This document shows positions 9,852 through 63,982 of a stretch of DNA of 64,000 bases, piece by piece. The stretch's first letter is position 1; each line of letters begins with the position of its first letter. The position numbers were made by a program, and so were the translations under genes. The notes under the pieces are model-generated. The model was not told the origin of the DNA, did no database searches, and saw only the letters and a list, made by a program, of their open reading frames with translations. The stretch is from Actinomycetota bacterium (lineage in GTDB: Bacteria > Actinomycetota > JAICYB01): the NCBI GenBank assembly GCA_040905525.1, contig JBBDRJ010000016.1:7004-71003 (forward strand). Direction: 5' to 3'.

Positions 9852-10207
9852 CTGGGTTCCGTTTCCTCTTGGCTCGTGGGCTTCCAGGCTTGCTCTCACC
9901 AGGGGCCTATTCACCCGGTTTCCCGGATTACTTCCGGTTCCTCCTTCACCGAGAAGGCACCTCTCGGATCCGAACCACGACCCGCTTGGACCGGGCCACT
10001 GTCGCGCGGCGCTAGCCACCCGCCACCGGTAGGCGTATGTGAAAGCTCACTGGCATCGGCGTCGTCCCCAGATCAGGACGGGGTCGCGAGCATCGATACC
10101 TTCCTCAATCTCACCTCCCTCGATTCGACGTCTAAGCGTAGCCGTGCGGATTGGCCCTCGACTGACATGCACCGCGACCATTGGTCCCAACGGGACAGGG
10201 AGGAAAC

Positions 10208-19390: not shown

Positions 19391-21112
19391 TCAGGCTTCG
19401 CCTATGAAGCCTTCGCGTTCGAGGTACAGGATGATCTCCTGCGCCGATTCCTCGGGGGACAGGTCCGCGGTGTCGATCACGATCTCCGCGTCCTCGGGAG
19501 CCTCGTAGGGGTCCGAGATCCCGGTGAACTCCTTGAGCACACCGGCCCTCGCCTTCGCGTACAAACCTTTACGATCACGCTCTTCGCACAGCTCGAGCGA
19601 CGTCGCAACGTGGACGAGGACGAACCCTCCGGCCGGCTCGATCGTCGCCCGCACGTCCTTGCGCACGGAGTCGTACGGCGCGATCGGCGCGCACAACGCG
19701 ATCCCGCCGTTCTTCGTTATCTCCGACGCCACCCAGCCGATCCGCCGGATGTTGATGTCGCGGTGCTCCTTCGAGAACCCGAGCTCGCTCGACAGGTGCT
19801 TCCGCACGAGATCGCCGTCCAGAAGCGTCACCGGGCGGCCGCCCATCTCGAGAAGCTTCACCAGCAAGGCGTTGGCGATCGTCGACTTGCCCGAGCCCGA
19901 GAGTCCGGTGAAGAAGACCGTGAACCCCTGATTGGCGCGCGGCGGATACGAACGTCGCAGCTCCTCCGCGACCTCAGGGAAGGTGAACCAACTGGGGATC
20001 TCCCGGCCCTGCGCCAGGCGCTGCCGCAGCTCGGTTCCCGAGATGTTGAGCGTTCGAGCACCCTCTGGAACCTGATCCACCGGGAAGTACGCATCGCGGT
20101 CCTCGACGAAGACCATCATCTGGAACGGGACCATCCGGACGCCGAGCTCTTCCTCATGCGAACGAAGCAGCTCCTGCGCCTCGTACGGTCCGTAGAACTC
20201 CTTACCGGACGAATCGGAACCCGGTCCGGCGTGATCGCGTCCGACGATGAAGTGTGTGCAGCCGTGATTCTTGCGGATGATCGCGTGCCAGACGGCCTCC
20301 CGCGGACCGCCCATCCGCATCGCCAGCGGCAGCAACGAGAGCGTCGCCGTCCCCTTCGGGTAGTGCCGGCGCAATGCTTCGTAGCAGCGCACGCGCGTGT
20401 AGTGATCGACGTCTCCCGGCTTGGTCATGCCAACAACCGGATGCACGAGCAGGTTGGCACCCGAATCCGTTGCCGCTCGCACGGTCAGCTCGAAATGCGC
20501 GCGGTGCATCGGGTTGCGCGTCTGGAACGCAACGATCTTCCGCCAGCCGAGCCGCGTGAACTCGGCCCGAAGCTCGGCCGGCCTGAGCCGGAGCTCGCGG
20601 TAGTCGTAGTGGGTCGGCGCTTCGGCGCCTTCGAGACGGCCGGAGACGTAAACGGGATTGGTGCGCTGGAGCACGTGAGAAACGCCCGGGTGCTCGGGCG
20701 AACCCGTGCCGTACACCGCCTCGGCCTCGGCTGCACGATCGGGAGTCCAAACGTCCTCGACGTGAAGAGCGGCGAGCATCGTCCCCTCCGGGTCGCGCAA
20801 CGCGACCGACGCACCAGATCCCAAACCGGACGCGAACTCTTCGGTGACGTCGAGCACGACGGGGATCGGCCACAGCGTGCCATCGGCCAGACGCATGTTG
20901 TCCCGGACCGATTCGTAATCGGCTTGGCCCAGGAAACCGTCCAGCGGAGAGAACCCGCCGGACAAAAGAAGCTCGAGGTCGCAGATCTGGCGCTCGCTCA
21001 GGTCCCAGGACGCCCAGTCGCGGGACGCCTTACGGAGCTCGCCGCGACGGTCTTCGTCGACGATCAGGTTTCTCAGGACGCCGCCGTGCGGCGCAATCAG
21101 ATGGTCGGTCAC
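19391..21112 (-). CDS. sat-cysC: Bifunctional sulfate adenylyltransferase (Sat type)/adenylylsulfate kinase
   Basis: FQTRNPMHRAH, VGRDHAG, GLSGSGKST, RDRKGLYAKARAG..FTGISDPYE. Confidence 0.92.
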   Translation of the reverse strand: MTDHLIAPHGGVLRNLIVDEDRRGELRKASRDWASWDLSERQICDLELLLSGGFSPLDGFLGQADYESVRDNMRLADGTLWPIPVVLDVTEEFASGLGSGASVALRDPEGTMLAALHVEDVWTPDRAAEAEAVYGTGSPEHPGVSHVLQRTNPVYVSGRLEGAEAPTHYDYRELRLRPAELRAEFTRLGWRKIVAFQTRNPMHRAHFELTVRAATDSGANLLVHPVVGMTKPGDVDHYTRVRCYEALRRHYPKGTATLSLLPLAMRMGGPREAVWHAIIRKNHGCTHFIVGRDHAGPGSDSSGKEFYGPYEAQELLRSHEEELGVRMVPFQMMVFVEDRDAYFPVDQVPEGARTLNISGTELRQRLAQGREIPSWFTFPEVAEELRRSYPPRANQGFTVFFTGLSGSGKSTIANALLVKLLEMGGRPVTLLDGDLVRKHLSSELGFSKEHRDINIRRIGWVASEITKNGGIALCAPIAPYDSVRKDVRATIEPAGGFVLVHVATSLELCEERDRKGLYAKARAGVLKEFTGISDPYEAPEDAEIVIDTADLSPEESAQEIILYLEREGFIGEA

Positions 21113-21278
21113 GACTCAGATCCCTTTCGATTGAGTGCCTGATTATCGCAAGAGGGGCCCCGGTGGCGCTTCCGAGCCCGATAGACAACGGAGTCGGCCC
21201 CCCGTGAATGTAGTCGCCCCATTAACATTCTGGCTGTGTATGCTAATGGCCAAACAGGAAACATAGCAGGAGGCTGAT

Positions 21279-22790
21279 GTGGCTAATTGGGAGCCCACCG
21301 ACGAGGACGTCATCCGGGTCCTGACGGACCAAAATCCGTGGCAGTCGACCGGTCGGGTGCCAGCCACGTTCGCCCCTCCAATCGAAAGAGAATTGGCTCG
21401 CGGACTCTACCAGCGCGTCCTGGATGCTGATCTGAGCCGCTTCCAGGTCGTCGTCGGCCCAAGGCGCGTTGGCAAAACCACCGCGATGTACCAGACAGTG
21501 AAGCGACTCTTGGGGCAGGGCGTTCCACGCAGGAGTCTCTGGTTCTTCCGGCTAGACCACCCCTTGCTTCTCGACTCGAGTCTGGATCAGTTGGTGCGAG
21601 CGGCAATCGATTTGGCCGGAGCAAGCGAGTCGGAGCCTGCACACCTCTTCTTCGACGAACTTGTGTATGCGAAGGATTGGGATCTCTGGCTGAAAACGTT
21701 TCACGACCAGAACTACCCAATACGCGTGATCGCGACATCCAGCGCAACCGCAGCCTTGGGGCGACGGCGCTTAGAGAGTGGTCTCGGTCGATGGGACGAG
21801 CACATCCTCATGCCGTACCTGTTTACCGAGTTCCTAGACCTTCTGAAAATCGAACCCCACGTGCATTTCGGCAAATCGCTCGCACGCACAATCGAATACA
21901 CCTTTCAGGATCGCCTGGATCTCGGTGACTTGGAAGGGCAAAGGCAGGCCTACCTCTTGACTGGGGGGTTCCCAGAACTGCTGCTCCGTCTCAATAAGGA
22001 CATCGGACCAGACGACTTGGAAACGCGCCTGCTTGAGTCTCAACGTGTACTACGCGGCGACGCGATCGAACGAGCAGTTTACAAGGACATCCCGCAGTCA
22101 TACGCAATTGATGATCCAATGGCCCTTGAACGACTCCTCTATTCACTCGCAGGACAGGTCACGGGAATCATCTCCCCAAGCCGTATGTGCGGCGAGCTTA
22201 GGATTTCACAGCCAACGCTCGATCGCTATATCTCGTACCTCGAACGAGCATTCCTTGTCTTCACGCTTCCCAATTACTCAGGACGTGAAGCAAGTGTGCA
22301 GAAGCGAGGTCGACGGATTTACTTCGTCGACACGGCGCTCCGCAATGCCGCCCTGCAGAGAGGGCTGGCTCCGCTTCGTCGTCCGGAAGAGATGGGTCTG
22401 CTTCTCGAAAACCTTGTTGCTTCTCAGTTACACGTGATGACCCTGAACACGAATCAACGACTGTTCCACTGGCGTGACGGCAGAGATGAGGTCGACCTAG
22501 TTCTTGATGATCCGGAGAGCCCTCTGGCGATCGAGGTGTCGTCGTCTAGTGATCACTCTCGCCATGGCCTCCGCGCTCTGATGGAGCGCCATCCACGTTT
22601 CGCCGGTCATTCCTACTTGGTGTCGCCGGACGTTCCCCTTATGGATCCATCTAGGGGCGGCGGCGTTGGCACTATTCCGCTCGACCTATTCCTCGTACTT
22701 GTGGGACGTCAAGCCCAAGCGGCGATACGACTGCGTTTGGGTGGAATCGACGATTCAAGCGCCCAAGGTGAACTAGATCTTCGCCCTTAG
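21279..22790 (+). CDS. AAA_14-type ATPase with C-terminal DUF4143-like domain
   Basis: Walker A GPRRVGKTT, Walker B LFFDE, LSQPTLDRYISYLE, EVDLVL..AIEV; AGGAGG RBS before GTG. Confidence 0.8.
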   Translation: MANWEPTDEDVIRVLTDQNPWQSTGRVPATFAPPIERELARGLYQRVLDADLSRFQVVVGPRRVGKTTAMYQTVKRLLGQGVPRRSLWFFRLDHPLLLDSSLDQLVRAAIDLAGASESEPAHLFFDELVYAKDWDLWLKTFHDQNYPIRVIATSSATAALGRRRLESGLGRWDEHILMPYLFTEFLDLLKIEPHVHFGKSLARTIEYTFQDRLDLGDLEGQRQAYLLTGGFPELLLRLNKDIGPDDLETRLLESQRVLRGDAIERAVYKDIPQSYAIDDPMALERLLYSLAGQVTGIISPSRMCGELRISQPTLDRYISYLERAFLVFTLPNYSGREASVQKRGRRIYFVDTALRNAALQRGLAPLRRPEEMGLLLENLVASQLHVMTLNTNQRLFHWRDGRDEVDLVLDDPESPLAIEVSSSSDHSRHGLRALMERHPRFAGHSYLVSPDVPLMDPSRGGGVGTIPLDLFLVLVGRQAQAAIRLRLGGIDDSSAQGELDLRP

Positions 22791-23600
22791 CGCCGTCGCG
22801 GAACCGTCGGCACTACTAGCATCGACGCCGTTGCCGTTCCCAATCGAGTGGATGCCGCACTCGGCCTTGTCGAATCCGTCCCAGCGTCCCGAGCGTTCGT
22901 CCTCGCCGTTGGCCACGGGCTTGGTGCACGGCGCGCAACCGATGGACAGGTAGCCCTCGTCGTAGAGCGGGTGACGCGGCAGATCGTGCTGCTTCGAGTA
23001 CTCCTCTACCTGCGCGCGCGTCCAGAAGGCCTGAGGGTTGACCTTCCAGATCTTGCGTCCCGACGTGAGCTCTTGGATCTCGAAGATCTCCGTGTTCGTC
23101 CTCGACGGTGACTGGTCGCGGCGCACACCGGTGACCCACCCGCCGAGCTCGTCGAGTGCCGCTTCCATCGGCAGCACCTTGTTGAGCTGGCAGCACTGGT
23201 CGGGGTCGACGCGGTACAGCTCGGGATGGATCTCGCGCGCCTGACGCTCCGGGCCGAGTGTGGGGGTCGTCTGGAGAAGCTCGAGCTTCCAGTCCTCAAC
23301 GAGCCGGTCGCGGAACGCGAGTGTCTCAGGGAAATGGAAGCCGGTCTCGAGGAACAGCACGCGCACGGGATCCACGACATCGCGCGCGATGTGGATGTTG
23401 ATCAGGCCGCCGAGCTGGAAGCTCGTGCCGATCGCCAGGTTCGGGATGTACTCGAACGCCCACGCGAGGATCTCCTCGGGATGCGCGTCGCGGAACCGCG
23501 TGCTCAGCTCGTGAAGGTCACCCGGATCCGGGTGAAGCTCAGCGAGCGGTAGTAGCGATTCTTTGGTGGAATCGCTCACGTTCCTCGTCACGATCGTCAT
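22773..23600 (-). CDS. cysH: APS/PAPS reductase with 4Fe-4S motifs (APS reductase type)
   Basis: ETGFHFPET, CCQLNK, TGVRRDQ, SIGCAPCT, ECGIH. Confidence 0.9.
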   Translation of the reverse strand: MTIVTRNVSDSTKESLLPLAELHPDPGDLHELSTRFRDAHPEEILAWAFEYIPNLAIGTSFQLGGLINIHIARDVVDPVRVLFLETGFHFPETLAFRDRLVEDWKLELLQTTPTLGPERQAREIHPELYRVDPDQCCQLNKVLPMEAALDELGGWVTGVRRDQSPSRTNTEIFEIQELTSGRKIWKVNPQAFWTRAQVEEYSKQHDLPRHPLYDEGYLSIGCAPCTKPVANGEDERSGRWDGFDKAECGIHSIGNGNGVDASSADGSATALRAKI

Positions 23601-25338
23601 TGGGACGGATGTCCTCCTCTGCGACGGGCTTGGGCCCGACGCGCTCGAGTCCTTTAGCTGCTTCTTGCGCCAATGCGTTGACCTTCTTGGGGTCGAGTGA
23701 GGTGATCCACTCACCGAAGCTTCGATGCCCGTTGCGTTGCGATTGGTACAGACGGATCACGCGCTCGGCGAACGACGAAAGCTCGTCGGCGCGCAAACGC
23801 AGACCCCGGACCTTCTGACCGAAGGCGCGCGGCTCTCCGAGGTGACCACCGAGGTGCACGTTGAACCCCTCGAGGCGGTCGACCTCGCCGTTGCCGTTCA
23901 CCTTCTCGGTGACCAAGACGCCCATGAACCCGAGGTCCGCGAGCTGGTAGCGCGCGCATGAGTTCGGGCAACCATTCACGTTGATGCGGATCGGCTCGTC
24001 GAAATCTGGAAGGCGCTTCTCGAGGTCGCCGTACAGCCACTCGGCCCGGGCTTTGGTCTCGACGATCGACAGCTTGCAGAACTCGATGCCCGTGCAGGCC
24101 ATCATCCCGTTGCGGAAAGCCGATGCGAACACGGGGAAGCCGAGGTCGTCGAGGGAGTCCATGGTCGCCGCGAGGCGCTCGTCGGGGATGTCGAGCAGCA
24201 CCATCTTCTGTAGCGGCGTGGCGCGAAGACGTCCCTGACCTTCGGCGTCGGCGAGGTCGGCGAGTGCGTTGAGCTCCGTACCGGTGATGCGGCCGTTGCG
24301 CAACGCGAATCCGAGGTAGTTCTGTCCGTCCTTCTGACGGCCCACGCCGGTGTGGTCGCGGTGAACGTTGGACGAGGGCTTGGCCATCGGTCCGTCGGCG
24401 AGCTGGTAGCCGAGGTATTTCTCCTCGAGCACCCGGCGGAACAGGTCGGGTCCCCACTCGGCCATCAGGAACTTGAGCCGGGCCTTGTTGCGTGAACGTC
24501 GGTACCCGTAGTCGCGGAAGATCGAAGTCACTCCGACGAAGGTCTCGACGACCTGTTCGGGCTTGACGAAAACGCCGAGACGCTGGGCGAAGTGCGGCGT
24601 CGAGGACAAACCGCCGCCGACCCACAGATCGAAGCCCTTAGTTCCGTCGTCCAGCTCGTTGCCCACGTACGAGACATCGTTGGCCTCGTGCACGGCGCAT
24701 TGGTGACGGCAACCCGTGATGGACGGCTTGTACTTGCGTGGGAGGTTCGAGAACTCGGGATCGCCGACGATCCGCTCGTTGCACTCGAGGACGAGCTCTG
24801 TGCCGTCGATGATCTCGTCGGCGTCCACACCGGCCAGCGGGCAACCGAGGATGTTGCGTGGCGTGTCCCCGCATGCTTCCGTCGTTTGAAGTCCGACGGC
24901 TTCCAGCCGCTCCCAGATCTCGGGGACGTCGGTCAGCCGGATCCAATGGAGCTGGATGTTCTGGCGGTCGGTGATGTCGGCGACGTCGCGACCGAACTCC
25001 TTCGAGATGTTGCCGATGGCTCGCGTCTGGTCCGAAGTAAGGACGCCGCCCGGGATACGGATGCGCCACATGAAGTAGCCGTCCTCCTCGGGACGCTGCG
25101 TGTACAGGCCGTACCAACGGAAGCGGGAACGCAAGTCGGCGACGAAGATGTTGTCGACGCTCGAGATCTCTCCGCGCTTCCACTGCTCGGCGTAGGAGAA
25201 GATGCGGTCCTTGACGTTCAGCGGGTTGTCGTCCCGCTTCATCTGCTCGGCAGCGTTCAGAGGCTCGCGGTAGCCCATACCCCATTGGCCTTCGCTGCCG
25301 CGCTTGGGACGCGGGATGTTGAGCGGTTCGCCGTTCAT
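23539..25338 (-). CDS. sir: Ferredoxin-dependent sulfite (or nitrite) reductase, siroheme/4Fe-4S
   Basis: RWYGLYTQR, TDRQNIQ, CGDTPRN, ACTGIEFCK, NGCPNSCA; cys gene context. Confidence 0.88.
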   Translation of the reverse strand: MNGEPLNIPRPKRGSEGQWGMGYREPLNAAEQMKRDDNPLNVKDRIFSYAEQWKRGEISSVDNIFVADLRSRFRWYGLYTQRPEEDGYFMWRIRIPGGVLTSDQTRAIGNISKEFGRDVADITDRQNIQLHWIRLTDVPEIWERLEAVGLQTTEACGDTPRNILGCPLAGVDADEIIDGTELVLECNERIVGDPEFSNLPRKYKPSITGCRHQCAVHEANDVSYVGNELDDGTKGFDLWVGGGLSSTPHFAQRLGVFVKPEQVVETFVGVTSIFRDYGYRRSRNKARLKFLMAEWGPDLFRRVLEEKYLGYQLADGPMAKPSSNVHRDHTGVGRQKDGQNYLGFALRNGRITGTELNALADLADAEGQGRLRATPLQKMVLLDIPDERLAATMDSLDDLGFPVFASAFRNGMMACTGIEFCKLSIVETKARAEWLYGDLEKRLPDFDEPIRINVNGCPNSCARYQLADLGFMGVLVTEKVNGNGEVDRLEGFNVHLGGHLGEPRAFGQKVRGLRLRADELSSFAERVIRLYQSQRNGHRSFGEWITSLDPKKVNALAQEAAKGLERVGPKPVAEEDIRPNDDRDEERERFHQRIATTAR

Positions 25339-25348
25339 GAGATTGGCA

Positions 25349-25810
25349 TCAGATCTGGAAGACGAGGTAGGAGGTTCGGTCGAGCTCGTCTTGGCGCTTG
25401 ATGAGGTCGGCGAGCGTGACGCTCGCGAGGCGGTCGCGGATGGTGATCTGGACGTCCAGCCACAGCTCCTGGATGGCGGAGTGCGCCTGGGCCCGGGCGG
25501 CGTCGTCGAAGGGGTCGAGGCAGGCCTGGGTCACGACCGGGCCCTCGGCCACGTCGACGACCTCGCTCACGGTGAGCGTGGCTGGGTCCCGCACCAGCCG
25601 AACACCGCCGCAGGCGCCGCGCTGGCTGGAGATGAATCCGGCGCGGCGCAGGTCGGCCAGGATCTGCTCGCAGAAGCGCTCGGGGATGCGCTGAGCGGCA
25701 GCTATCTCCCGATTGGGCACGGGTGCCGGCTCGCCGTCGGCCTCGCCGGCCCGGCGGCCGAGCTCCAGCAGGGCCCGCAGGGCGTACTCCGTGCGCTGGG
25801 AAAACTTCAT
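25349..25810 (-). CDS. Rrf2 family transcriptional regulator (CymR-like by context)
   Basis: MKFSQRTEYALRALLEL, LRRAGFISSQRGA.GG; lacks the full IscR three-Cys set. Confidence 0.88.
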   Translation of the reverse strand: MKFSQRTEYALRALLELGRRAGEADGEPAPVPNREIAAAQRIPERFCEQILADLRRAGFISSQRGACGGVRLVRDPATLTVSEVVDVAEGPVVTQACLDPFDDAARAQAHSAIQELWLDVQITIRDRLASVTLADLIKRQDELDRTSYLVFQI

Positions 25811-25826
25811 CTTCACTCCAGTCCTG

Positions 25827-25882
25827 GGTAGGGATATAATTACCCATAGCTTACTGGGATTTCAACTGGACAAATCCCTACC
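25827..25882. promoter_or_regulatory. Nested inverted repeats in the divergent Rrf2/DsrE promoter region (candidate Rrf2 operators)
   Basis: GGTAGGGAT(25827-35)/ATCCCTACC(25874-82) and GGGATTT(25856-62)/AAATCCC(25872-78) in an AT-rich spacer. Confidence 0.45.
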
Positions 25883-25920
25883 GGTTTCCTAGGATATCGG
25901 TCCAGTCAGGAGAAGGTGTA

Positions 25921-26460
25921 ATGAGCGACCAGATCAGCGCGCCGAACGGCCCGAACGGGCACCACGCCGAAGCCAACGGCGGAGGCGCAAAGAAGATGAC
26001 GATCATCGCCTGGTCGGGCGAGCTCGACAAGGTTTGGCCAACGCTGATCCTGGCCACCACCGCTGCCGCCTCAGGCATGGAGGTGGCCGTCTTCTTCACC
26101 TTCTGGGGCCTGCGGATCCTTCAAAAGAACGACAAGCGTGTCACGGGCAAGGGCTTCAAACAGAAGATGCTCTCGATCTTCAACCGCGGCGGCACCGAGC
26201 ACCTCGGTCTGTCCAAGCTGAACATGGGCGGGATGGGGCCGATGATGATGCGCCAGCTCGCCAAGGAATACAAGGTCGCCGAGCCTCAGGAGCTGCTCGA
26301 GATGGCCCAGCAGCTCGGTGTGAAGCTCTGGCCGTGCCAGATGACTATGGATCTGATGGGCCTGAAGCGCGAGGACATGATCGACGGCCTGGACGAGACG
26401 GTGGGAGCCGCGACCGCGCTTCAGCGGATGTCGGAGTCGGACATCCAGCTCTTCATTTAA
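25921..26460 (+). CDS. DsrE/DsrF/DrsH-like (DrsE_2) sulfur-relay family protein
   Basis: AAASGMEVAVFFTFWGL, LSKLNMGGMG, WPCQMTMDLMG. Confidence 0.85.
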   Translation: MSDQISAPNGPNGHHAEANGGGAKKMTIIAWSGELDKVWPTLILATTAAASGMEVAVFFTFWGLRILQKNDKRVTGKGFKQKMLSIFNRGGTEHLGLSKLNMGGMGPMMMRQLAKEYKVAEPQELLEMAQQLGVKLWPCQMTMDLMGLKREDMIDGLDETVGAATALQRMSESDIQLFI

Positions 26461-26512: not shown

Positions 26513-26544
26513 CCTGAGAAACAGAACTCTCGGGGGAGAGAAGT

Positions 26545-26572
26545 AGAAGGGGCCGGCGAACCGGCCCCTTCT
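26545..26572. terminator. Hairpin terminator between the convergent DsrE and GYD genes
   Basis: AGAAGGGGCCGG-CGAA-CCGGCCCCTTCT perfect 12-bp stem. Confidence 0.8.
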
Positions 26573-26594: not shown

Positions 26595-26921
26595 CTACGT
26601 GCCCGGCGGTTTGTAGCCAACCTTCTCGGACTTCTTCGCGGCGTCGTCCATCTCCTCCGGAGTGAGGAGGACGACCGTACGCGAACTTACCCCCCCGCTC
26701 GCCGAGACGACGAGACTTGCCGCGGCCGCTGACGCGTGGTCGGGCACGTCGATGATGACGTACACATCGTCGCTACCGAACCCGAAATAGAAGGACTCGA
26801 CCTTTCCTCCCAAGTCCTTGGCCATCATCTCGACCGTCTTACGCCGCTTGGATCCTCCGTCCTCGAGGAGCCCCTTGGCCCCCTGGGCGGTGTAACTGGC
26901 GATCAGCAGGTACTTCGGCAT
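26595..26921 (-). CDS. GYD domain protein
   Basis: MPKYLLIASYT..G, LGGKVESFYFGFGSDD, TVVLLTPEEMD. Confidence 0.85.
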   Translation of the reverse strand: MPKYLLIASYTAQGAKGLLEDGGSKRRKTVEMMAKDLGGKVESFYFGFGSDDVYVIIDVPDHASAAAASLVVSASGGVSSRTVVLLTPEEMDDAAKKSEKVGYKPPGT

Positions 26922-27005
26922 CAATCACCTCCTACGACGAGAAGACATCAAGATTCGGATGCGCCAACTATCCAACACCCCGGCGCAAGGGGGGAGAGGC
27001 CGTGA

Positions 27006-27281
27006 CTATCCGCCGGCTACCGCGGGAATGATCGACACCTGTTCCCCTTCGGGGATCTCGGTGTCCAACCCTTTCAGGAAGCGGATGTCTTCTTCGCCTA
27101 CGTACACGTTCACGAATCGACGTAGCTCGCCGGCGTCGTCGCACATCCGCTCCTTGAACCCGGGAAATTGCTTCTCCAGGTCGTCGACGACGGCGCGGAT
27201 GGTCGACCCCGCGGCATCGACCTCGGCCTGCTCCTTGGTCAGCTTGCGCAGTGGAGTCGGGATCCGGACCTTGACGCTCAA
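27006..27281 (-). CDS. MoaD/ThiS/CysO-like ubiquitin-fold sulfur carrier
   Basis: VRIPTPLR, RRFVNVYV..EDIRFL.GLDT, C-terminal PAVAGG. Confidence 0.92.
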   Translation of the reverse strand: MSVKVRIPTPLRKLTKEQAEVDAAGSTIRAVVDDLEKQFPGFKERMCDDAGELRRFVNVYVGEEDIRFLKGLDTEIPEGEQVSIIPAVAGG

Positions 27282-28552
27282 TCCTTCTCCTTTCGGGCTG
27301 AACCTCGGCCGTTCGGGATGAGTCCCAGCTCGACCTTGTCCTCGAACTCATCGAGGGACGGTGTGATCGTAACCGCCGGGCCGGCGCGATCGGCTACGGC
27401 CTCGATGGTCTTCAATCCCATCCCCGTGATCAGCGCGACAACACGCTCACCGGGCGAGAACACGCCGGCTTGCGCCAGCTTCGCCAGCACACCGACGGTT
27501 ACTCCACCGGCCGTCTCGGTGAAGATCCCTTCCGTGCGCGCGAGAAGCAGGATCGACTGGACGATCTCCTCCTCGGTGACCGTGTCTGCCCGGCCCCCGG
27601 TCTCGCGGATCGCCTGCAATGCGTAAGGACCGTCGGCCGGGTTCCCGATGGCGATCGACTTCGCGATCGTGTCCGGCTTCTGCGGACGGACGTGGTCCAC
27701 GCCCTCTGCGAAGGCCTGCGCCACCGGAGAGCATCCGAGCGCCTGTGCGCCGTGCACCTTGGTGTGCGGCGCGGCGGGCATCAGTCTCACCTTGTCGAGC
27801 TCGTCCAGACCCTTGCGTACCTTCACGAGCTGCGAGCCGGAACCGATCGGAACGACGATGTGGTCGGGATACTTCCATCCCAGTTGCTCTACAACCTCGA
27901 AGGCCAAGGTCTTCGAGCCTTCTGAATAGAAGGGCCGGATGTTGGTATTTACGAAGGCCCAGGGATAGGAGTCGGCCACCTCGGCGCAGAGTCGATTCAC
28001 TTCATCGTAGTTGCCCTTGATCGCCACGATCGTCGCGCCGTACACCGAAGTCGTGATGATCTTTCCGGCCTCGAGGTCGGCGGGCATGAACACAACCGCA
28101 GGCATCCCGGCCTTGGCGGCATGTGCAGCCACGGAGTTCCCGAGATTGCCCGTAGTGCCGGCCGCGGCCACGCGAAGCCCGAACTCGCGAGCCTTCGTCA
28201 ACCCGACCGACACCACGCGGTCCTTGAAGGAGTAGGTCGGATTGACGGTGTCGTTCTTCAGCCACAGGTCGCTGATACCGAGCTCGGCTCCCAGGCGCGG
28301 GGCGGGCACAAGCGGTGTGAACCCAGCCCCGAGATCGACGCGCGGCGTCGACTCGGCGACGGGCAGGAGATCCACGTAGCGCCAGATCGAGCGCGGACCC
28401 GCCGCGATCTGCTCGCGGCTGATCGCTGCGTCGATGGCGGCGTAGTCGTAGTCGGCCTCCAGGGGGCCGAAACAGAATTCGCAGACGTGTATGGGCGCGA
28501 CGTCGTAGGTCCGACCGCACTCCCTGCACTTGAGCTTGTCGATCTGCGCCAA
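27278..28552 (-). CDS. thrC: Threonine synthase-like PLP enzyme with N-terminal zinc ribbon
   Basis: CRECG...CEFCFGP, NPTYSFKDR (PLP Lys), TIAKSIAIGNPADG, EGIFTETAGG; TTGA overlap with the carrier gene. Confidence 0.8.
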   Translation of the reverse strand: MAQIDKLKCRECGRTYDVAPIHVCEFCFGPLEADYDYAAIDAAISREQIAAGPRSIWRYVDLLPVAESTPRVDLGAGFTPLVPAPRLGAELGISDLWLKNDTVNPTYSFKDRVVSVGLTKAREFGLRVAAAGTTGNLGNSVAAHAAKAGMPAVVFMPADLEAGKIITTSVYGATIVAIKGNYDEVNRLCAEVADSYPWAFVNTNIRPFYSEGSKTLAFEVVEQLGWKYPDHIVVPIGSGSQLVKVRKGLDELDKVRLMPAAPHTKVHGAQALGCSPVAQAFAEGVDHVRPQKPDTIAKSIAIGNPADGPYALQAIRETGGRADTVTEEEIVQSILLLARTEGIFTETAGGVTVGVLAKLAQAGVFSPGERVVALITGMGLKTIEAVADRAGPAVTITPSLDEFEDKVELGLIPNGRGSARKEKD

Positions 28553-28602
28553 CTAATTCCTCCTAACGCCTCCGGCTTCGCCTTCGGCGCGGCACGGAGC
28601 CG

Positions 28603-28637
28603 AAAAACAAAAACCCCCGCCGACTAAGCGACGGGGG
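28603..28637 (-). terminator. Intrinsic terminator (riboswitch expression platform)
   Basis: Minus strand CCCCCGTCG-CTTAGT-CGGCGGGGG-TTTTTGTTTTT. Confidence 0.85.
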
Positions 28638-28654
28638 CGCTCTTCGCGCTCCTA

Positions 28655-28766
28655 GCTCATCGCCCCCGCGCTCGGGTCGGCGTTAGCACCTCGCTCGGCT
28701 GGCTGGCCAGCCTCACCGGTTGCCGGGGCTTCACAGGGCCGGTCCCTCCACCCCTCTTGATGAACC
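28655..28766 (-). promoter_or_regulatory. SAM-I (S-box) riboswitch
   Basis: Minus strand TTCATCAAGAG-GGGTGGAGGGACCGGCCCTGTGAAGCCCCGGCAACC...GGTGCTAACGCC...GATGAG matches the S-box core. Confidence 0.9.
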
Positions 28767-48653: not shown

Positions 48654-49442
48654 CTAGGACGTGATGGTCACCGCGGCGGGATCGCCGAGCAGCTCGCGCG
48701 CGCTAGAACCGTTGCAGGCAACGGCGACGTGGCCGCCCGAGTCGATGTAGACCACAAGGGCGCCGGGCTCGCCGTCCGCGAACGTCCGACCGAGGCGAGC
48801 GTCGAAGCTTTCTGCGCCGTTGGAGACCGAGAGTTCGTCCCCAAAGTCGGCGGTGGCTAGATCAACATCGGTGGCGGCGAGCTGTAGGTTCCCGTACCAA
48901 TCGACGCGCAGGACATCGGCGGTCAGCTTCCCCGTTGATACGTCGACGTGCGCCGGCCGAAGACGAACGAGGTCGCCGATGTCGACGGCCGGACCGAACG
49001 CCTCCGGGGTGACACCGAGCGCAAGGTGCGCCGCGGCCGGCGCGAAGACGTCACGCCCGTGAAAGGTGGATGAAAGAGGCGCAAGCTGGTAGCGCTCCTC
49101 GGTCAGCTCGTGAGCCGCGACCGCTCCGCCCAGGGCGTCGGCCGCCGGCGGAAGGAGCCCGTTGTCGGGGCCGACCAGAAGCGCACCGGCGTTCGTCTGG
49201 ATCACAACGGCGCGGCGCTGTGTTCCCACGCCCGGATCCACGACGGCGAGGTGTACGGCCGTCGTCGGGGCGAAGGGCAGGCTCTGGCGAAGCAGAGTCG
49301 CGCCGGCACGAACGCCTCGGATCCCGTGGACGAGATCGACGATCCGCACCTCCGGAGCGATCCCGGCGATGACGAGACGGCACACGCCGACGTATTCGTC
49401 GGTGGGGCCGTAGTCGCTGGAGAAAGTGACGAGCTTCGTGAT
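48654..49442 (-). CDS. SAM hydrolase/halogenase (DUF62) family protein; probable ATC start
   Basis: LVTFSSDYG, VVDPGVGTQRR, GPDNG, TFHGRDVFAP, DWYGNL. The N-terminal motif lies upstream of the first canonical start. Confidence 0.85.
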   Translation of the reverse strand: MTKLVTFSSDYGPTDEYVGVCRLVIAGIAPEVRIVDLVHGIRGVRAGATLLRQSLPFAPTTAVHLAVVDPGVGTQRRAVVIQTNAGALLVGPDNGLLPPAADALGGAVAAHELTEERYQLAPLSSTFHGRDVFAPAAAHLALGVTPEAFGPAVDIGDLVRLRPAHVDVSTGKLTADVLRVDWYGNLQLAATDVDLATADFGDELSVSNGAESFDARLGRTFADGEPGALVVYIDSGGHVAVACNGSSARELLGDPAAVTITS

Positions 49443-51580: not shown

Positions 51581-52377
51581 GACCCCAACTCCTTGCTGCG
51601 CCGGTGGGCTGCGCGCAGAGCCTCCCCGAAGGCCGCGCGAACGGCCATCGCCTCGAGCACGCTAAGGGCAGCGGCCGTCGTGCCGCCGGGTGATGTGACC
51701 TGTGCGCGCAAGATCGCCGGTGGATCCCCCGTCGTGCGCAGCATGGTCCCCGATCCTTCTATCGTCGCGAACGTCAGAGTCTCGGCTACGTCCCTCGGCA
51801 GGCCGAGAGCAACGGCGGCCTCGACCATCGCCTCGGCGACCAGGAAGATGTACGCCGGACCCGAGCCCGAAAGGGCGGTAACGGCGTCGAGCTTGTCTTC
51901 GTCGAGCCACACGACGGGACCGACCGCGCGGAAGATGTCGTCGGCCAAGGTCTTGGTCTCATCGGTTGCGTAGCGCCCGGCGGCCAGCGCGGTCACGCCG
52001 CGTCCGACGCGCGCCGGCGTGTTCGGCATCGCACGAACGACGGAGGCGCCCTTGCCGAGCTGGTCCTCGATAGCCGACGTCTTCAGGCCGGCGACGATCG
52101 ACACGATCCCGGCCGCGTCGGCAGATCCGCCGATCGTGTCCAGAGCCGCCGCCGCGTCCTGCGGCTTCACGGCCAGCAGAACGCCGGTGGCGTCGATGGC
52201 GGCCTCGGCCGGACTGGTCGTTGTTCGTACGCCGAGAGCCTTGCCCACCTGCTCGAGGCGATCCGCTGCGATGTCGGCAAGGATCATCTCGTCGGCCGAC
52301 CATCCCGCGTCGAGCAGCCCGCGGGCGAGGGCTTCCCCCATCATCCCCGCACCGATGAACGCTACGCGTCGTGTCAT
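51577..52377 (-). CDS. proC: Pyrroline-5-carboxylate reductase
   Basis: FIGAGMMG, AVKPQ, RAMPNTP, ALSGSGPAY, VTSPGGTT. Confidence 0.97.
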   Translation of the reverse strand: MTRRVAFIGAGMMGEALARGLLDAGWSADEMILADIAADRLEQVGKALGVRTTTSPAEAAIDATGVLLAVKPQDAAAALDTIGGSADAAGIVSIVAGLKTSAIEDQLGKGASVVRAMPNTPARVGRGVTALAAGRYATDETKTLADDIFRAVGPVVWLDEDKLDAVTALSGSGPAYIFLVAEAMVEAAVALGLPRDVAETLTFATIEGSGTMLRTTGDPPAILRAQVTSPGGTTAAALSVLEAMAVRAAFGEALRAAHRRSKELGS

Positions 52378-53588
52378 AGCTGCCTCCCGATGCGTTCTAT
52401 CTCCGCACCCTCTAGACAAGAGCTCACGAGTGCGTCGATGTCGAGTGAAGCTTCTGCTGCCACGCACGCTTCGACGGTGGCTCGGGTTGCGGGAGCCCTG
52501 GGGACGAAAAGCGAGCAGCAGTCTTCGTACGGAAGGATCGATGTCTCGTAGGTGCCGATCCGCTTGGCCTGCTCGACGATCTCTTGCTTGTCATCGCCGA
52601 TCAACGGACGCAACAGCGGCACCGGCGCGACATCGTCCACGCACCCGATGTTTTCCAGGGTCTGGGACGCGACCTGCCCGAGGCTGTCACCCGTCACCAG
52701 GGCCCGGGCTCCCTGGCTCCGCGCGATCTCGGCCCCCACTCTGACCATCAGGCGGCGATACAGGACGACGCGAAGGTCGGGCGAGGCGGTCAGCACGATC
52801 TGCTGCTGGGCGTCGCCGAGCGGGACGAGATACAGGGTCGTGTCGCCCTGCCAGTTCGCGATCATGCCGGCGAGCTCCGTGGCCTTCCGCACGCTCGAGC
52901 GGTCGGTGAAGGGGGCCGAATGGAAGTGGCAAAGGATCGCCTTCGCGCCGCGCTTGAGGATGCGGTAGGTGGCAACCGGAGAGTCGATGCCTCCGGACAG
53001 AAGGGATACGACCTTCCCGGACACGCCGACGGGAAGGCCACCCGGACCCTCGCGGCGGTCGACGTAGACGAACGCGCGAGCGCCGACCACTTCGACGTAA
53101 ACCGTCGCGTCCGGGGAGCCGAGGTTGACCGCTGCTCCCGTCGCGCCCTGGATCGCCGCACCGAGCTCAACGTTGATCTGTCTGGACGTGATCGGCAGCT
53201 CCTTCGTGGCGCGTCGAGCAGCCACGGCGAAGGTGGAGAACTCGCGGGGCTCCAGTCGCGCGAGTGCGGCATCGATCATCGCGCCGATCGCGACTTCGGT
53301 CACGGTGCACGGCGCAAACGCCGCAACACCGAACGTCGTGCCGATCCGGTCCAAGACTCCCTCGCTCGGTTCGGCCGATGTATGCAGAACCAGACGGCCG
53401 GTAAGAGCCTCGACCGTGGCCTCACCTCCGATGACGGACTCGAGGTTTCGCACGAGCCGGCGTTCGAAGAATCCACGGTTGCGGCCTTTCAGGCCGATCT
53501 CGTTGTAATGAACGACGACGCCAAGGTCACCGGACGTCCGGACGACGTGTCCGAAAGGCTGATCGAGTGCGGCGTTCTCCATGTCCAT
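52374..53588 (-). CDS. thiI: tRNA 4-thiouridine synthase ThiI (no C-terminal rhodanese)
   Basis: HYNEIGLKGRNR, THUMP region, SLLSGGIDSPVA, TGDSLGQVASQT, EDCC. Confidence 0.92.
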   Translation of the reverse strand: MDMENAALDQPFGHVVRTSGDLGVVVHYNEIGLKGRNRGFFERRLVRNLESVIGGEATVEALTGRLVLHTSAEPSEGVLDRIGTTFGVAAFAPCTVTEVAIGAMIDAALARLEPREFSTFAVAARRATKELPITSRQINVELGAAIQGATGAAVNLGSPDATVYVEVVGARAFVYVDRREGPGGLPVGVSGKVVSLLSGGIDSPVATYRILKRGAKAILCHFHSAPFTDRSSVRKATELAGMIANWQGDTTLYLVPLGDAQQQIVLTASPDLRVVLYRRLMVRVGAEIARSQGARALVTGDSLGQVASQTLENIGCVDDVAPVPLLRPLIGDDKQEIVEQAKRIGTYETSILPYEDCCSLFVPRAPATRATVEACVAAEASLDIDALVSSCLEGAEIERIGRQL

Positions 53589-63734: not shown

Positions 63735-63807
63735 TGGGCCGCCAGGGAATCGAACCCCGGACACCCGGGTTAAAAGCCCGGTGCTCTGCCAACTGAGCTA
63801 GCGGCCC
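63735..63807 (-). tRNA. tRNA-Lys(UUU); CCA not encoded
   Basis: GGGCCGC acceptor stem, AGCTCAGTTGGCAGAGC D-arm, CT-TTT-AA loop, GGTTCGATTCC T-arm. Confidence 0.95.
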
Positions 63808-63907: not shown

Positions 63908-63982
63908 GGGGGCGTGGAGCAGCGTGGAGTGCTCGCCACCCTGTCAAGGTGGAGGTCGCGGGTTCAAGTCCCGTCGCCCCCG
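63908..63982 (+). tRNA. tRNA-Asp(GUC); CCA not encoded
   Basis: GGGGGCG/CGCCCCC acceptor stem, CCACC-CTGTCAA-GGTGG anticodon arm, GGGTTCAAGTCCC T-arm. Confidence 0.95.

Follow-up and report, generated by a model that had tools for sequence, protein, structure and literature searches.

The window analyzed in this study, a stretch of 64,000 nucleotides (nt) from an Actinomycetota contig (JBBDRJ010000016.1), contains on its minus strand, between positions 27006 and 28766, a riboswitch for S-adenosylmethionine (SAM) of the SAM-I (S-box) class, followed by a gene for a ThrC-homologous pyridoxal phosphate (PLP) enzyme and a gene for a small sulfur carrier. The homology of the two proteins and their gene context make it very probable that these elements form a SAM-repressed metM-metO operon, which would make homocysteine by the MetM/MetO route. 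The riboswitch, its terminator, both genes, their translational coupling and the conserved arrangement of the locus were observed directly. The locus is a further representative of a known system, here in an Acidimicrobiia-like metagenome-assembled genome (MAG). The window has a G+C content of 65%, and its sequence recurs without any difference within contig JBBDKJ010000001.1 (MAG GCA_040879475.1). Among named relatives, it is closest to MAGs assigned to Acidimicrobiia/Acidimicrobiales or to unclassified Actinomycetota.

Leader RNA and Start of the Operon

The aptamer (28654-28766, minus strand) was identified with the Rfam covariance model RF00162 at 71.3 bits (gathering score 44.4; E-value 1.1e-14), and the match covers the model completely (positions 1-108 of 108). 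A second covariance model, trained on 12 leaders of homologous loci, also finds it (86.9 bits). The intrinsic terminator of the expression platform (28603-28638, minus strand), located by a terminator scan, lies 16 nt further downstream. Its stem-loop (28638-28613) consists of 10 pairs, eight of them G-C, closed by a 6-nt loop and followed by the T-tract TTTTGTTTTT. When the leader is folded to minimum energy, the 5' arm of the terminator (CGCCCCCGUCGC) is base-paired to the 3' part of the aptamer (GCGGGGGCGAUG), a pattern typical of the anti-terminator in OFF switches. This fold has a z-score of -2.99 and none of 200 shuffled sequences folded as well. Score, full-model coverage and the predicted expression platform, with its hairpin, T-tract and alternative anti-terminator pairing, place the leader in the SAM-I class, and the modeled structures suggest SAM-dependent OFF-switch logic. 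An earlier reading of the sequence alone had described an S-box aptamer with a terminator and proposed the RF00162 scan as a check; aptamer and terminator are both recovered here, the former well above the gathering score. Sequence inspection further revealed a ribosome-binding site, AGGAGG (28559-28564, minus strand), 6 nt before the TTG start codon of the first gene at position 28552.

The ThrC-Like Enzyme

The first gene (27278-28552, minus strand), which we designate metM-like, encodes a protein of 424 amino acids (aa) that matches PF00291 (PALP) in Pfam with an E-value of 6e-73. It starts with a CxxC...CxxC ribbon formed by C9, C12, C24 and C27, which surfaced as a NinF match at residues 8-32. 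The Zn-ribbon, ThrC-like PLP enzyme that had been proposed from the sequence is therefore present. The lysine of the SFKDR motif (K110) and the four cysteines are invariant in an alignment of the clade of homologs that are linked to a sulfur-carrier gene. Three features agree with an assignment to MetM, namely the ThrC-homologous, fold-type-II PLP enzyme with its catalytic lysine K110, the adjoining carrier gene (with a TTGA overlap) and the upstream SAM riboswitch.

The best solved structures for this enzyme are threonine synthases, with 2zsj as top match (E-value 1e-59, 36% identity), while the identity to the carrier-linked homologs amounts to 52-67%. Alignment with the ThrC structures begins only at about residue 53-57, so the crystallised ThrCs lack the ribbon. 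Membership of other enzyme families was also considered. The scores for CysM/CysK (TIGR01136, 49.3 versus 344 bits; TIGR01139, 44.8 versus 351 bits) and for cysteate synthase (TIGR03844, 64.1 versus 324.9 bits) all lie below the cut-off.

The sequence-only reading had drawn attention to the segment AAAGTTGN, which stands in place of the ThrC segment ACASTGN. The segment is indeed found at residues 129-136, but it is no family signature: most members of the carrier-linked clade have ACASTGN at this position, like ThrC, and a relative with 82% identity reads AACGSTGN. As other carrier-linked members, including this relative, keep (A)C(A/G)STGN, AAAGTTGN was rejected as a functional signature and is, judged by the family consensus, a lineage quirk. 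A better marker of the clade is the motif N(I/L)RP(F/Y)Y(A/S)EG(S/A)KT, which is found where the crystallised ThrCs read NPYRxEGQKT. The ThrC arginine of NPYRxEG aligns with a tyrosine in the window enzyme, and an arginine sits three positions earlier.

The Sulfur-Carrier Protein

The second, metO-like gene (27006-27281, minus strand) also starts with TTG and encodes a carrier of the ThiS/MoaD/CysO type of 91 aa (PF02597, ThiS; E-value 9e-16, 58.7 bits). The protein ends in ...IIPAVAGG, without any extension behind the free C-terminal Gly-Gly, as expected for a small beta-grasp carrier of the MetO/CysO type. Compared along the entire protein, it shares 52% identity with CysO of Mycobacterium tuberculosis (3dwg_C; E-value 3e-23), the established thiocarboxylate carrier of the CysM pathway, and it is 60% identical to the protein in the same position in Nonomuraea. 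The TGA stop codon of the enzyme gene and the TTG start codon of the carrier gene share the 4 nt TTGA, so that the two genes are translationally coupled. Both the overlap and the MoaD/CysO-like protein ending in AGG agree with what had been read from the sequence.

Carriers of the ThiS/MoaD type are shared between pathways in actinomycetes, and the second-best structural match of the MetO-like protein, 4n6e_B, is such a carrier. The protein might thus serve another thio-cofactor or natural product (molybdopterin, thiamin or a thiosugar), or its partner might be an enzyme of the cysteate-synthase type. We regard this as extremely unlikely: neither moaE, thiG nor a biosynthetic cluster was found adjacent to the gene pair in the scans of the window's open reading frames (ORFs), the cysteate synthase score is far below its cut-off, and the SAM riboswitch points to methionine/SAM supply.

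Distribution of the Gene Pair

Homologous loci were collected in a GTDB scan with one genome per species, and the figures below refer to the best 80 loci listed, with 55-67% identity. They span Acidimicrobiia and other Actinomycetota, Chloroflexota, Nitrospirota, cyanobacteria, Acidobacteriota, Aquificaceae, Syntrophaceae, Planctomycetia and Dormibacteria. In 73 of these 80 loci, metM is immediately followed by a gene for a MetO homolog in the same orientation, in line with the earlier remark that thrC-moaD pairs occur in other genomes; among the remaining seven is one locus (L026) in which the contig stops right after metM. Gly-Gly forms the exact C-terminus of about three quarters of the carriers, while some have one to seven additional residues and two are fused to a NIL domain (PF09383), located C-terminally of the Gly-Gly. 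The fused proteins were found in a Syntrophaceae MAG (L053:11288-11800, E-value 6e-14) and a Planctomycetia MAG (L072:6334-6903, E-value 2.5e-16).

Rfam detected a SAM-I riboswitch 5' of metM in 10 of 20 short loci. With the 12-leader model, the riboswitch was found in all Actinomycetota loci (25/25; the 23 loci L005-L027 as well as L066 and L079) and in six Chloroflexota loci, with one weak match in L050. No riboswitch was found in the cyanobacterial and Nitrospirota loci with this model, which was seeded with Actinomycetota and Chloroflexota leaders and may miss divergent ones; Rfam itself was run on ten riboswitch-free loci and the other negatives rest on the 12-leader model. The metM-metO pair is therefore widespread across the sampled phyla, whereas its control by a SAM riboswitch is found, among the sampled loci, only in Actinomycetota and part of the Chloroflexota. 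Gene context in this way links the ThrC-like clade with the chemistry of sulfur carriers across phyla, and with regulation by SAM in Actinomycetota. Many of the Acidimicrobiia aptamers 5' of metM (L005-L027) are short, and several appear to have no P4. Many also stop 7-20 nt before the start codon, as in L008 (aptamer 9895-9993, metM from ~10001), which suggests translational control in many Acidimicrobiia; the window uses a terminator instead.

The same arrangement was found in Nonomuraea gerenzanensis by a tblastn search against a plasmid collection. There, the ThrC-like gene (52% identity over 95% coverage) follows a SAM-I riboswitch (68.7 bits) and precedes a gene whose 91-aa product ends in IIPAVAGG. 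The enzyme query matches three places in this chromosome, each with an E-value of 1e-40 or better, suggesting that further ThrC-family paralogs exist besides the riboswitch-linked copy. The record in question (L004, NZ_LT559118.1) is labelled 'plasmid I' yet is chromosome-sized with 11.85 Mb, and it has 10 annotated features. Streptomyces was not represented among the best 80 GTDB loci listed. In the plasmid tblastn search, Nonomuraea was the only organism above 50% identity, again with no Streptomyces, and a search of 50%-representatives and clusters gave Micromonosporaceae and unnamed proteins.

The Actinomycetota loci share a synteny with otsA upstream and groEL downstream. When two genes on either side of metM-metO were scanned with Pfam in the best 80 loci, ThiF was found in 13 ORFs, Prok-JAB in three and a CysK/M-like PALP protein in eight. 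These neighbors occur predominantly in Nitrospirota, with the gene order PALP, ThiF, MetM, MetO, ThiF (L029, 8168-12625; also L032, L038, L056, L061 and L067). By its gene content, this looks like a combined cluster for carrier-dependent cysteine and homocysteine synthesis with two E1-like activators. A different arrangement was observed in an Anaerolineae MAG (L047, 2896-5921), where a SAM riboswitch (91 bits) and a MetM homolog are followed by an MttB-family methyltransferase gene in place of metO; this gene contains a marginal Rfam PYLIS_3 match (42.6 versus 38 bits).

The Nitrospirota loci also bear on the question whether the pair in the window could make cysteine or another thiol from O-phosphoserine, with the ThrC-like enzyme standing in for CysM. 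S-boxes control some cysteine-related genes in Bacillota, the carrier closely resembles CysO, and the operon lies beside a sulfate-reduction cluster in a window where cysK and cysM were not found. We nevertheless consider this option very unlikely. The enzyme is of the ThrC type and not of the CysK/CysM type, as the TIGR01136 score shows, and the characterised homolog uses O-phosphohomoserine according to the published summaries of its pathway. In addition, the Nitrospirota loci hold a separate CysK/M-like PALP gene beside metM-metO, which implies two different jobs for the two enzymes.

Predicted Pathway and Its Evaluation

In GapMind 2026 (Appendix 4), the experimentally supported MetM/MetO route of Streptomyces albulus, in which O-phosphohomoserine and a carrier thiocarboxylate give homocysteine, is credited to Hasebe et al. 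(2024); the steps listed there for this pathway include the sulfur carrier MetO, the hydrolase Mec and the sulfur ligase MoeZ. The same source (Hasebe et al., 2024, Appl Environ Microbiol 90:e01247-24) is cited for MetM/MetO in PMC12172450, whose statements on S. albulus describe a SAM riboswitch upstream of metM and methionine auxotrophy upon loss of the pathway. The MetM/MetO assignment is repeated in a passage of a third paper.

By analogy with this pathway, which provides the substrate, the product and the roles of MoeZ and Mec, the operon in the window would function as follows. When SAM is plentiful, the S-box aptamer would fold, freeing the terminator so that transcription stops before metM; when SAM is low, the operon would be transcribed. 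MetO would first be adenylated and sulfurated by a MoeZ/ThiF-type enzyme encoded outside the window. MetM would bind O-phosphohomoserine on PLP and eliminate phosphate, like threonine synthase, after which the MetO thiocarboxylate (Gly-Gly-COSH) would attack C-gamma, in place of the addition of water at C-beta. Homocysteine would then be released and converted to methionine by methionine synthase, and a Mec/JAMM-type hydrolase, likewise encoded outside the window, would probably release or recycle the carrier. The sequence-only reading had proposed just such a gamma-replacement of O-phosphohomoserine with a carrier thiocarboxylate. Homology and context support this proposal, since the proposed reaction equals that of the S. 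albulus pathway and the same gene order is present in Nonomuraea and in all Actinomycetota loci listed. The function had also been put forward as the novelty of the locus, a claim that does not hold as both reaction and regulation were published in 2024 (Hasebe et al., 2024).

Several observations weigh against this assignment. The profile models class the enzyme as a threonine synthase: it passes the cut-offs of NF006050 (305.6 versus 303 bits) and TIGR00260 (279.5 versus 167.1 bits), two NCBIfam threonine synthase models of a kind that, as stated in the entry on this pathway in GapMind 2026, also captures MetM, a family often mis-annotated as threonine synthase. The link to S. albulus MetM runs via intermediates, with 52% identity to the Nonomuraea homolog of identical context and 55-59% to cyanobacterial homologs, a group that includes the Microcystis homolog. 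The latter is 51.6% identical to MetM and has a neighbor 47% identical to MetO, and it was reported to show threonine synthase and threonine deaminase activity in vitro but no clear MetM function in vivo (PMC12172450). Finally, neither ThiF/MoeZ nor JAB/Mec was found among the about 60 ORFs of the window that were scanned against Pfam.

The enzyme could accordingly be a genuine or bifunctional threonine synthase that merely neighbors a carrier gene. Besides the cut-offs passed and the formation of threonine from O-phosphohomoserine by the Microcystis homolog in vitro (PMC12172450), the label threonine synthase given to relatives in public sources would fit this explanation. We judge it improbable, as the gene is controlled by SAM and not by threonine, it overlaps with the Gly-Gly carrier gene in a stop/start arrangement, and the carrier is retained directly downstream in most of the best loci, across several phyla. 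Moreover, the low identity to the crystallised ThrCs, the extra ribbon and the altered NPYRxEG motif set the enzyme apart, and the three query matches in the Nonomuraea chromosome suggest that ThrC-family paralogs exist as separate genes. The riboswitch, the translational coupling and the family context thus disfavor this explanation as well as those of cysteine synthesis and of another cofactor, leaving homocysteine synthesis by a MetM/MetO pair as the preferred reading.

On that reading, the automatic threonine synthase call hides a complete homocysteine route, and such mis-annotation would produce false methionine "gaps" in reconstructions of uncultured Actinomycetota, Chloroflexota, Nitrospirota and cyanobacteria. 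Within the window, no thrB (homoserine kinase), second thrC, cysK/cysM or metX/Y/B was found among the ORFs scanned. As far as these ORFs show, the sequence-only reading was correct in reporting that cysK, cysM and metY, as well as a MoeB/ThiF activator and a JAMM protease, are missing from the window. The main value of the locus lies in the correction of its annotation, and no new principle follows from it.

Genomic Surroundings

A gene for a GYD-domain protein (26595-26924, minus strand; PF08734, E-value 1.6e-27) follows metO after a gap of 81 nt in which no terminator was called. Terminator-like hairpins are located 3' of this gene (26527-26571, minus strand), where a G+C-rich GAAGGGGCCGG-TTCG-CCGGCCCCTTC hairpin was read in the sequence and the scan places a site at 26540-26527. 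These hairpins likely mark the end of the operon. Since no terminator follows metO and the hairpins appear only behind the GYD gene, the latter is probably under the control of the same SAM riboswitch, as third gene of a metM-metO-GYD transcript.

Further along lies a block of sulfur genes, identified by Pfam and NCBIfam matches. It comprises genes for a DsrE2-like protein (25921-26460, plus strand) and an Rrf2 regulator (25349-25816, minus strand), the sulfite reductase gene sir (23539-25338, minus strand), cysH (22773-23714, minus strand) and sat/cysC (19391-21112, minus strand), which is in line with the Rrf2-sir-cysH-sat/cysC cluster noted before. This block (19391-26460) is a neighbor of the metM-metO operon. 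The DsrE2-like gene is divergent from the Rrf2 gene at the head of sir-cysH-sat, a position kept in the relatives with 82-86% identity (L085, L086 and L087). A gene for a DUF4143/AAA_14 ATPase (21279-22790, plus strand) is inserted between cysH and sat/cysC. It has a G+C content of 57% and a G+C content at third codon positions (GC3) of 0.62, compared with a GC3 of 0.83-0.84 in its neighbors. This lower composition, together with the position of sat/cysC directly after cysH in relative L087, makes the ATPase gene look like a recent insertion.

The 82-86% relatives keep hem genes, otsA, treT and metM-metO, followed by variable genes and then by the DsrE2-like gene, Rrf2, sir, cysH and sat. A GYD gene is also found near metM-metO in the 82% relative and is absent from the 86% relative. 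At larger distance, a sulfate-assimilation gene lies near metM-metO in only three of the best 80 GTDB loci, so this linkage is lineage-specific. A tblastn search for GYD, DsrE2-like and Rrf2 proteins found none near metM-metO in those 80 loci, and all three, seen only at an identity of at least 82%, were discarded as family-wide partners of the pair. Because no MoeZ or Mec gene is nearby, one may ask whether the DsrE2-like protein, the GYD protein or both feed sulfur to MetO or help in product release, by a route unlike that of MoeZ/Mec in Streptomyces. Under this idea, and if the genome lacks metX, metY and metB, the operon would be the sole source of homocysteine in these uncultured bacteria. 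The conserved sulfur block and the probable co-transcription of the GYD gene would be consistent with this idea, which we consider unlikely.

Elsewhere in the window, we observed a gene of the SAM hydroxide adenosyltransferase family (48654-49385, minus strand), a gene for ThiI, involved in sulfur transfer for tRNA 4-thiouridine and thiamin (52374-53588, minus strand), and two divergent tRNA genes at the window end (63735-63807, minus strand; 63908-63982, plus strand).

Comparison With Known Systems

With canonical ThrC (PDB 2zsj, 6cgq, 1uim and 2d1f), the window enzyme shares the PLP fold, the SFKDR lysine motif, the profile scores and, as predicted here, the substrate O-phosphohomoserine. 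It differs in its identity of only 36%, the extra ribbon domain of ~55 aa and the presence of N(I/L)RP(F/Y)YxEG instead of NPYRxEG, as well as in its SAM control and its pairing with a Gly-Gly carrier.

The HcyS-HcyD-HcyF-MetY system of Wolinella succinogenes also obtains homocysteine from a protein thiocarboxylate. It relies on MetY, a fold-type-I O-acetylhomoserine sulfhydrylase, with a clustered protease and E1-like activator; no such enzyme was found among the scanned ORFs of the window.

The CysO-CysM-Mec system of M. tuberculosis has a carrier of 52% identity with the same AVAGG C-terminus and follows the same logic, in which the thiocarboxylate of the carrier reacts with an intermediate that is bound to PLP and originates from a phosphorylated amino acid. 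In the window, the partner is of the ThrC type instead of the CysK/CysM type, the predicted conversion is that of O-phosphohomoserine to homocysteine, the genes are preceded by a SAM riboswitch, and mec and moeZ are not adjacent.

The closest counterpart is MetM/MetO of S. albulus, with which the window shares a ThrC-homologous PLP enzyme with an adjoining small carrier gene, a SAM riboswitch at the 5' side, the same predicted reaction and the location of MoeZ and Mec outside the operon. The window stems from another class of Actinomycetota (an Acidimicrobiia-like MAG), its enzyme being ~52% identical to a homolog from the class Actinomycetes (Nonomuraea). Its enzyme has TTGN in place of STGN in the loop after the PLP lysine, and its operon has an appended GYD gene and sits in a sulfate-assimilation block.

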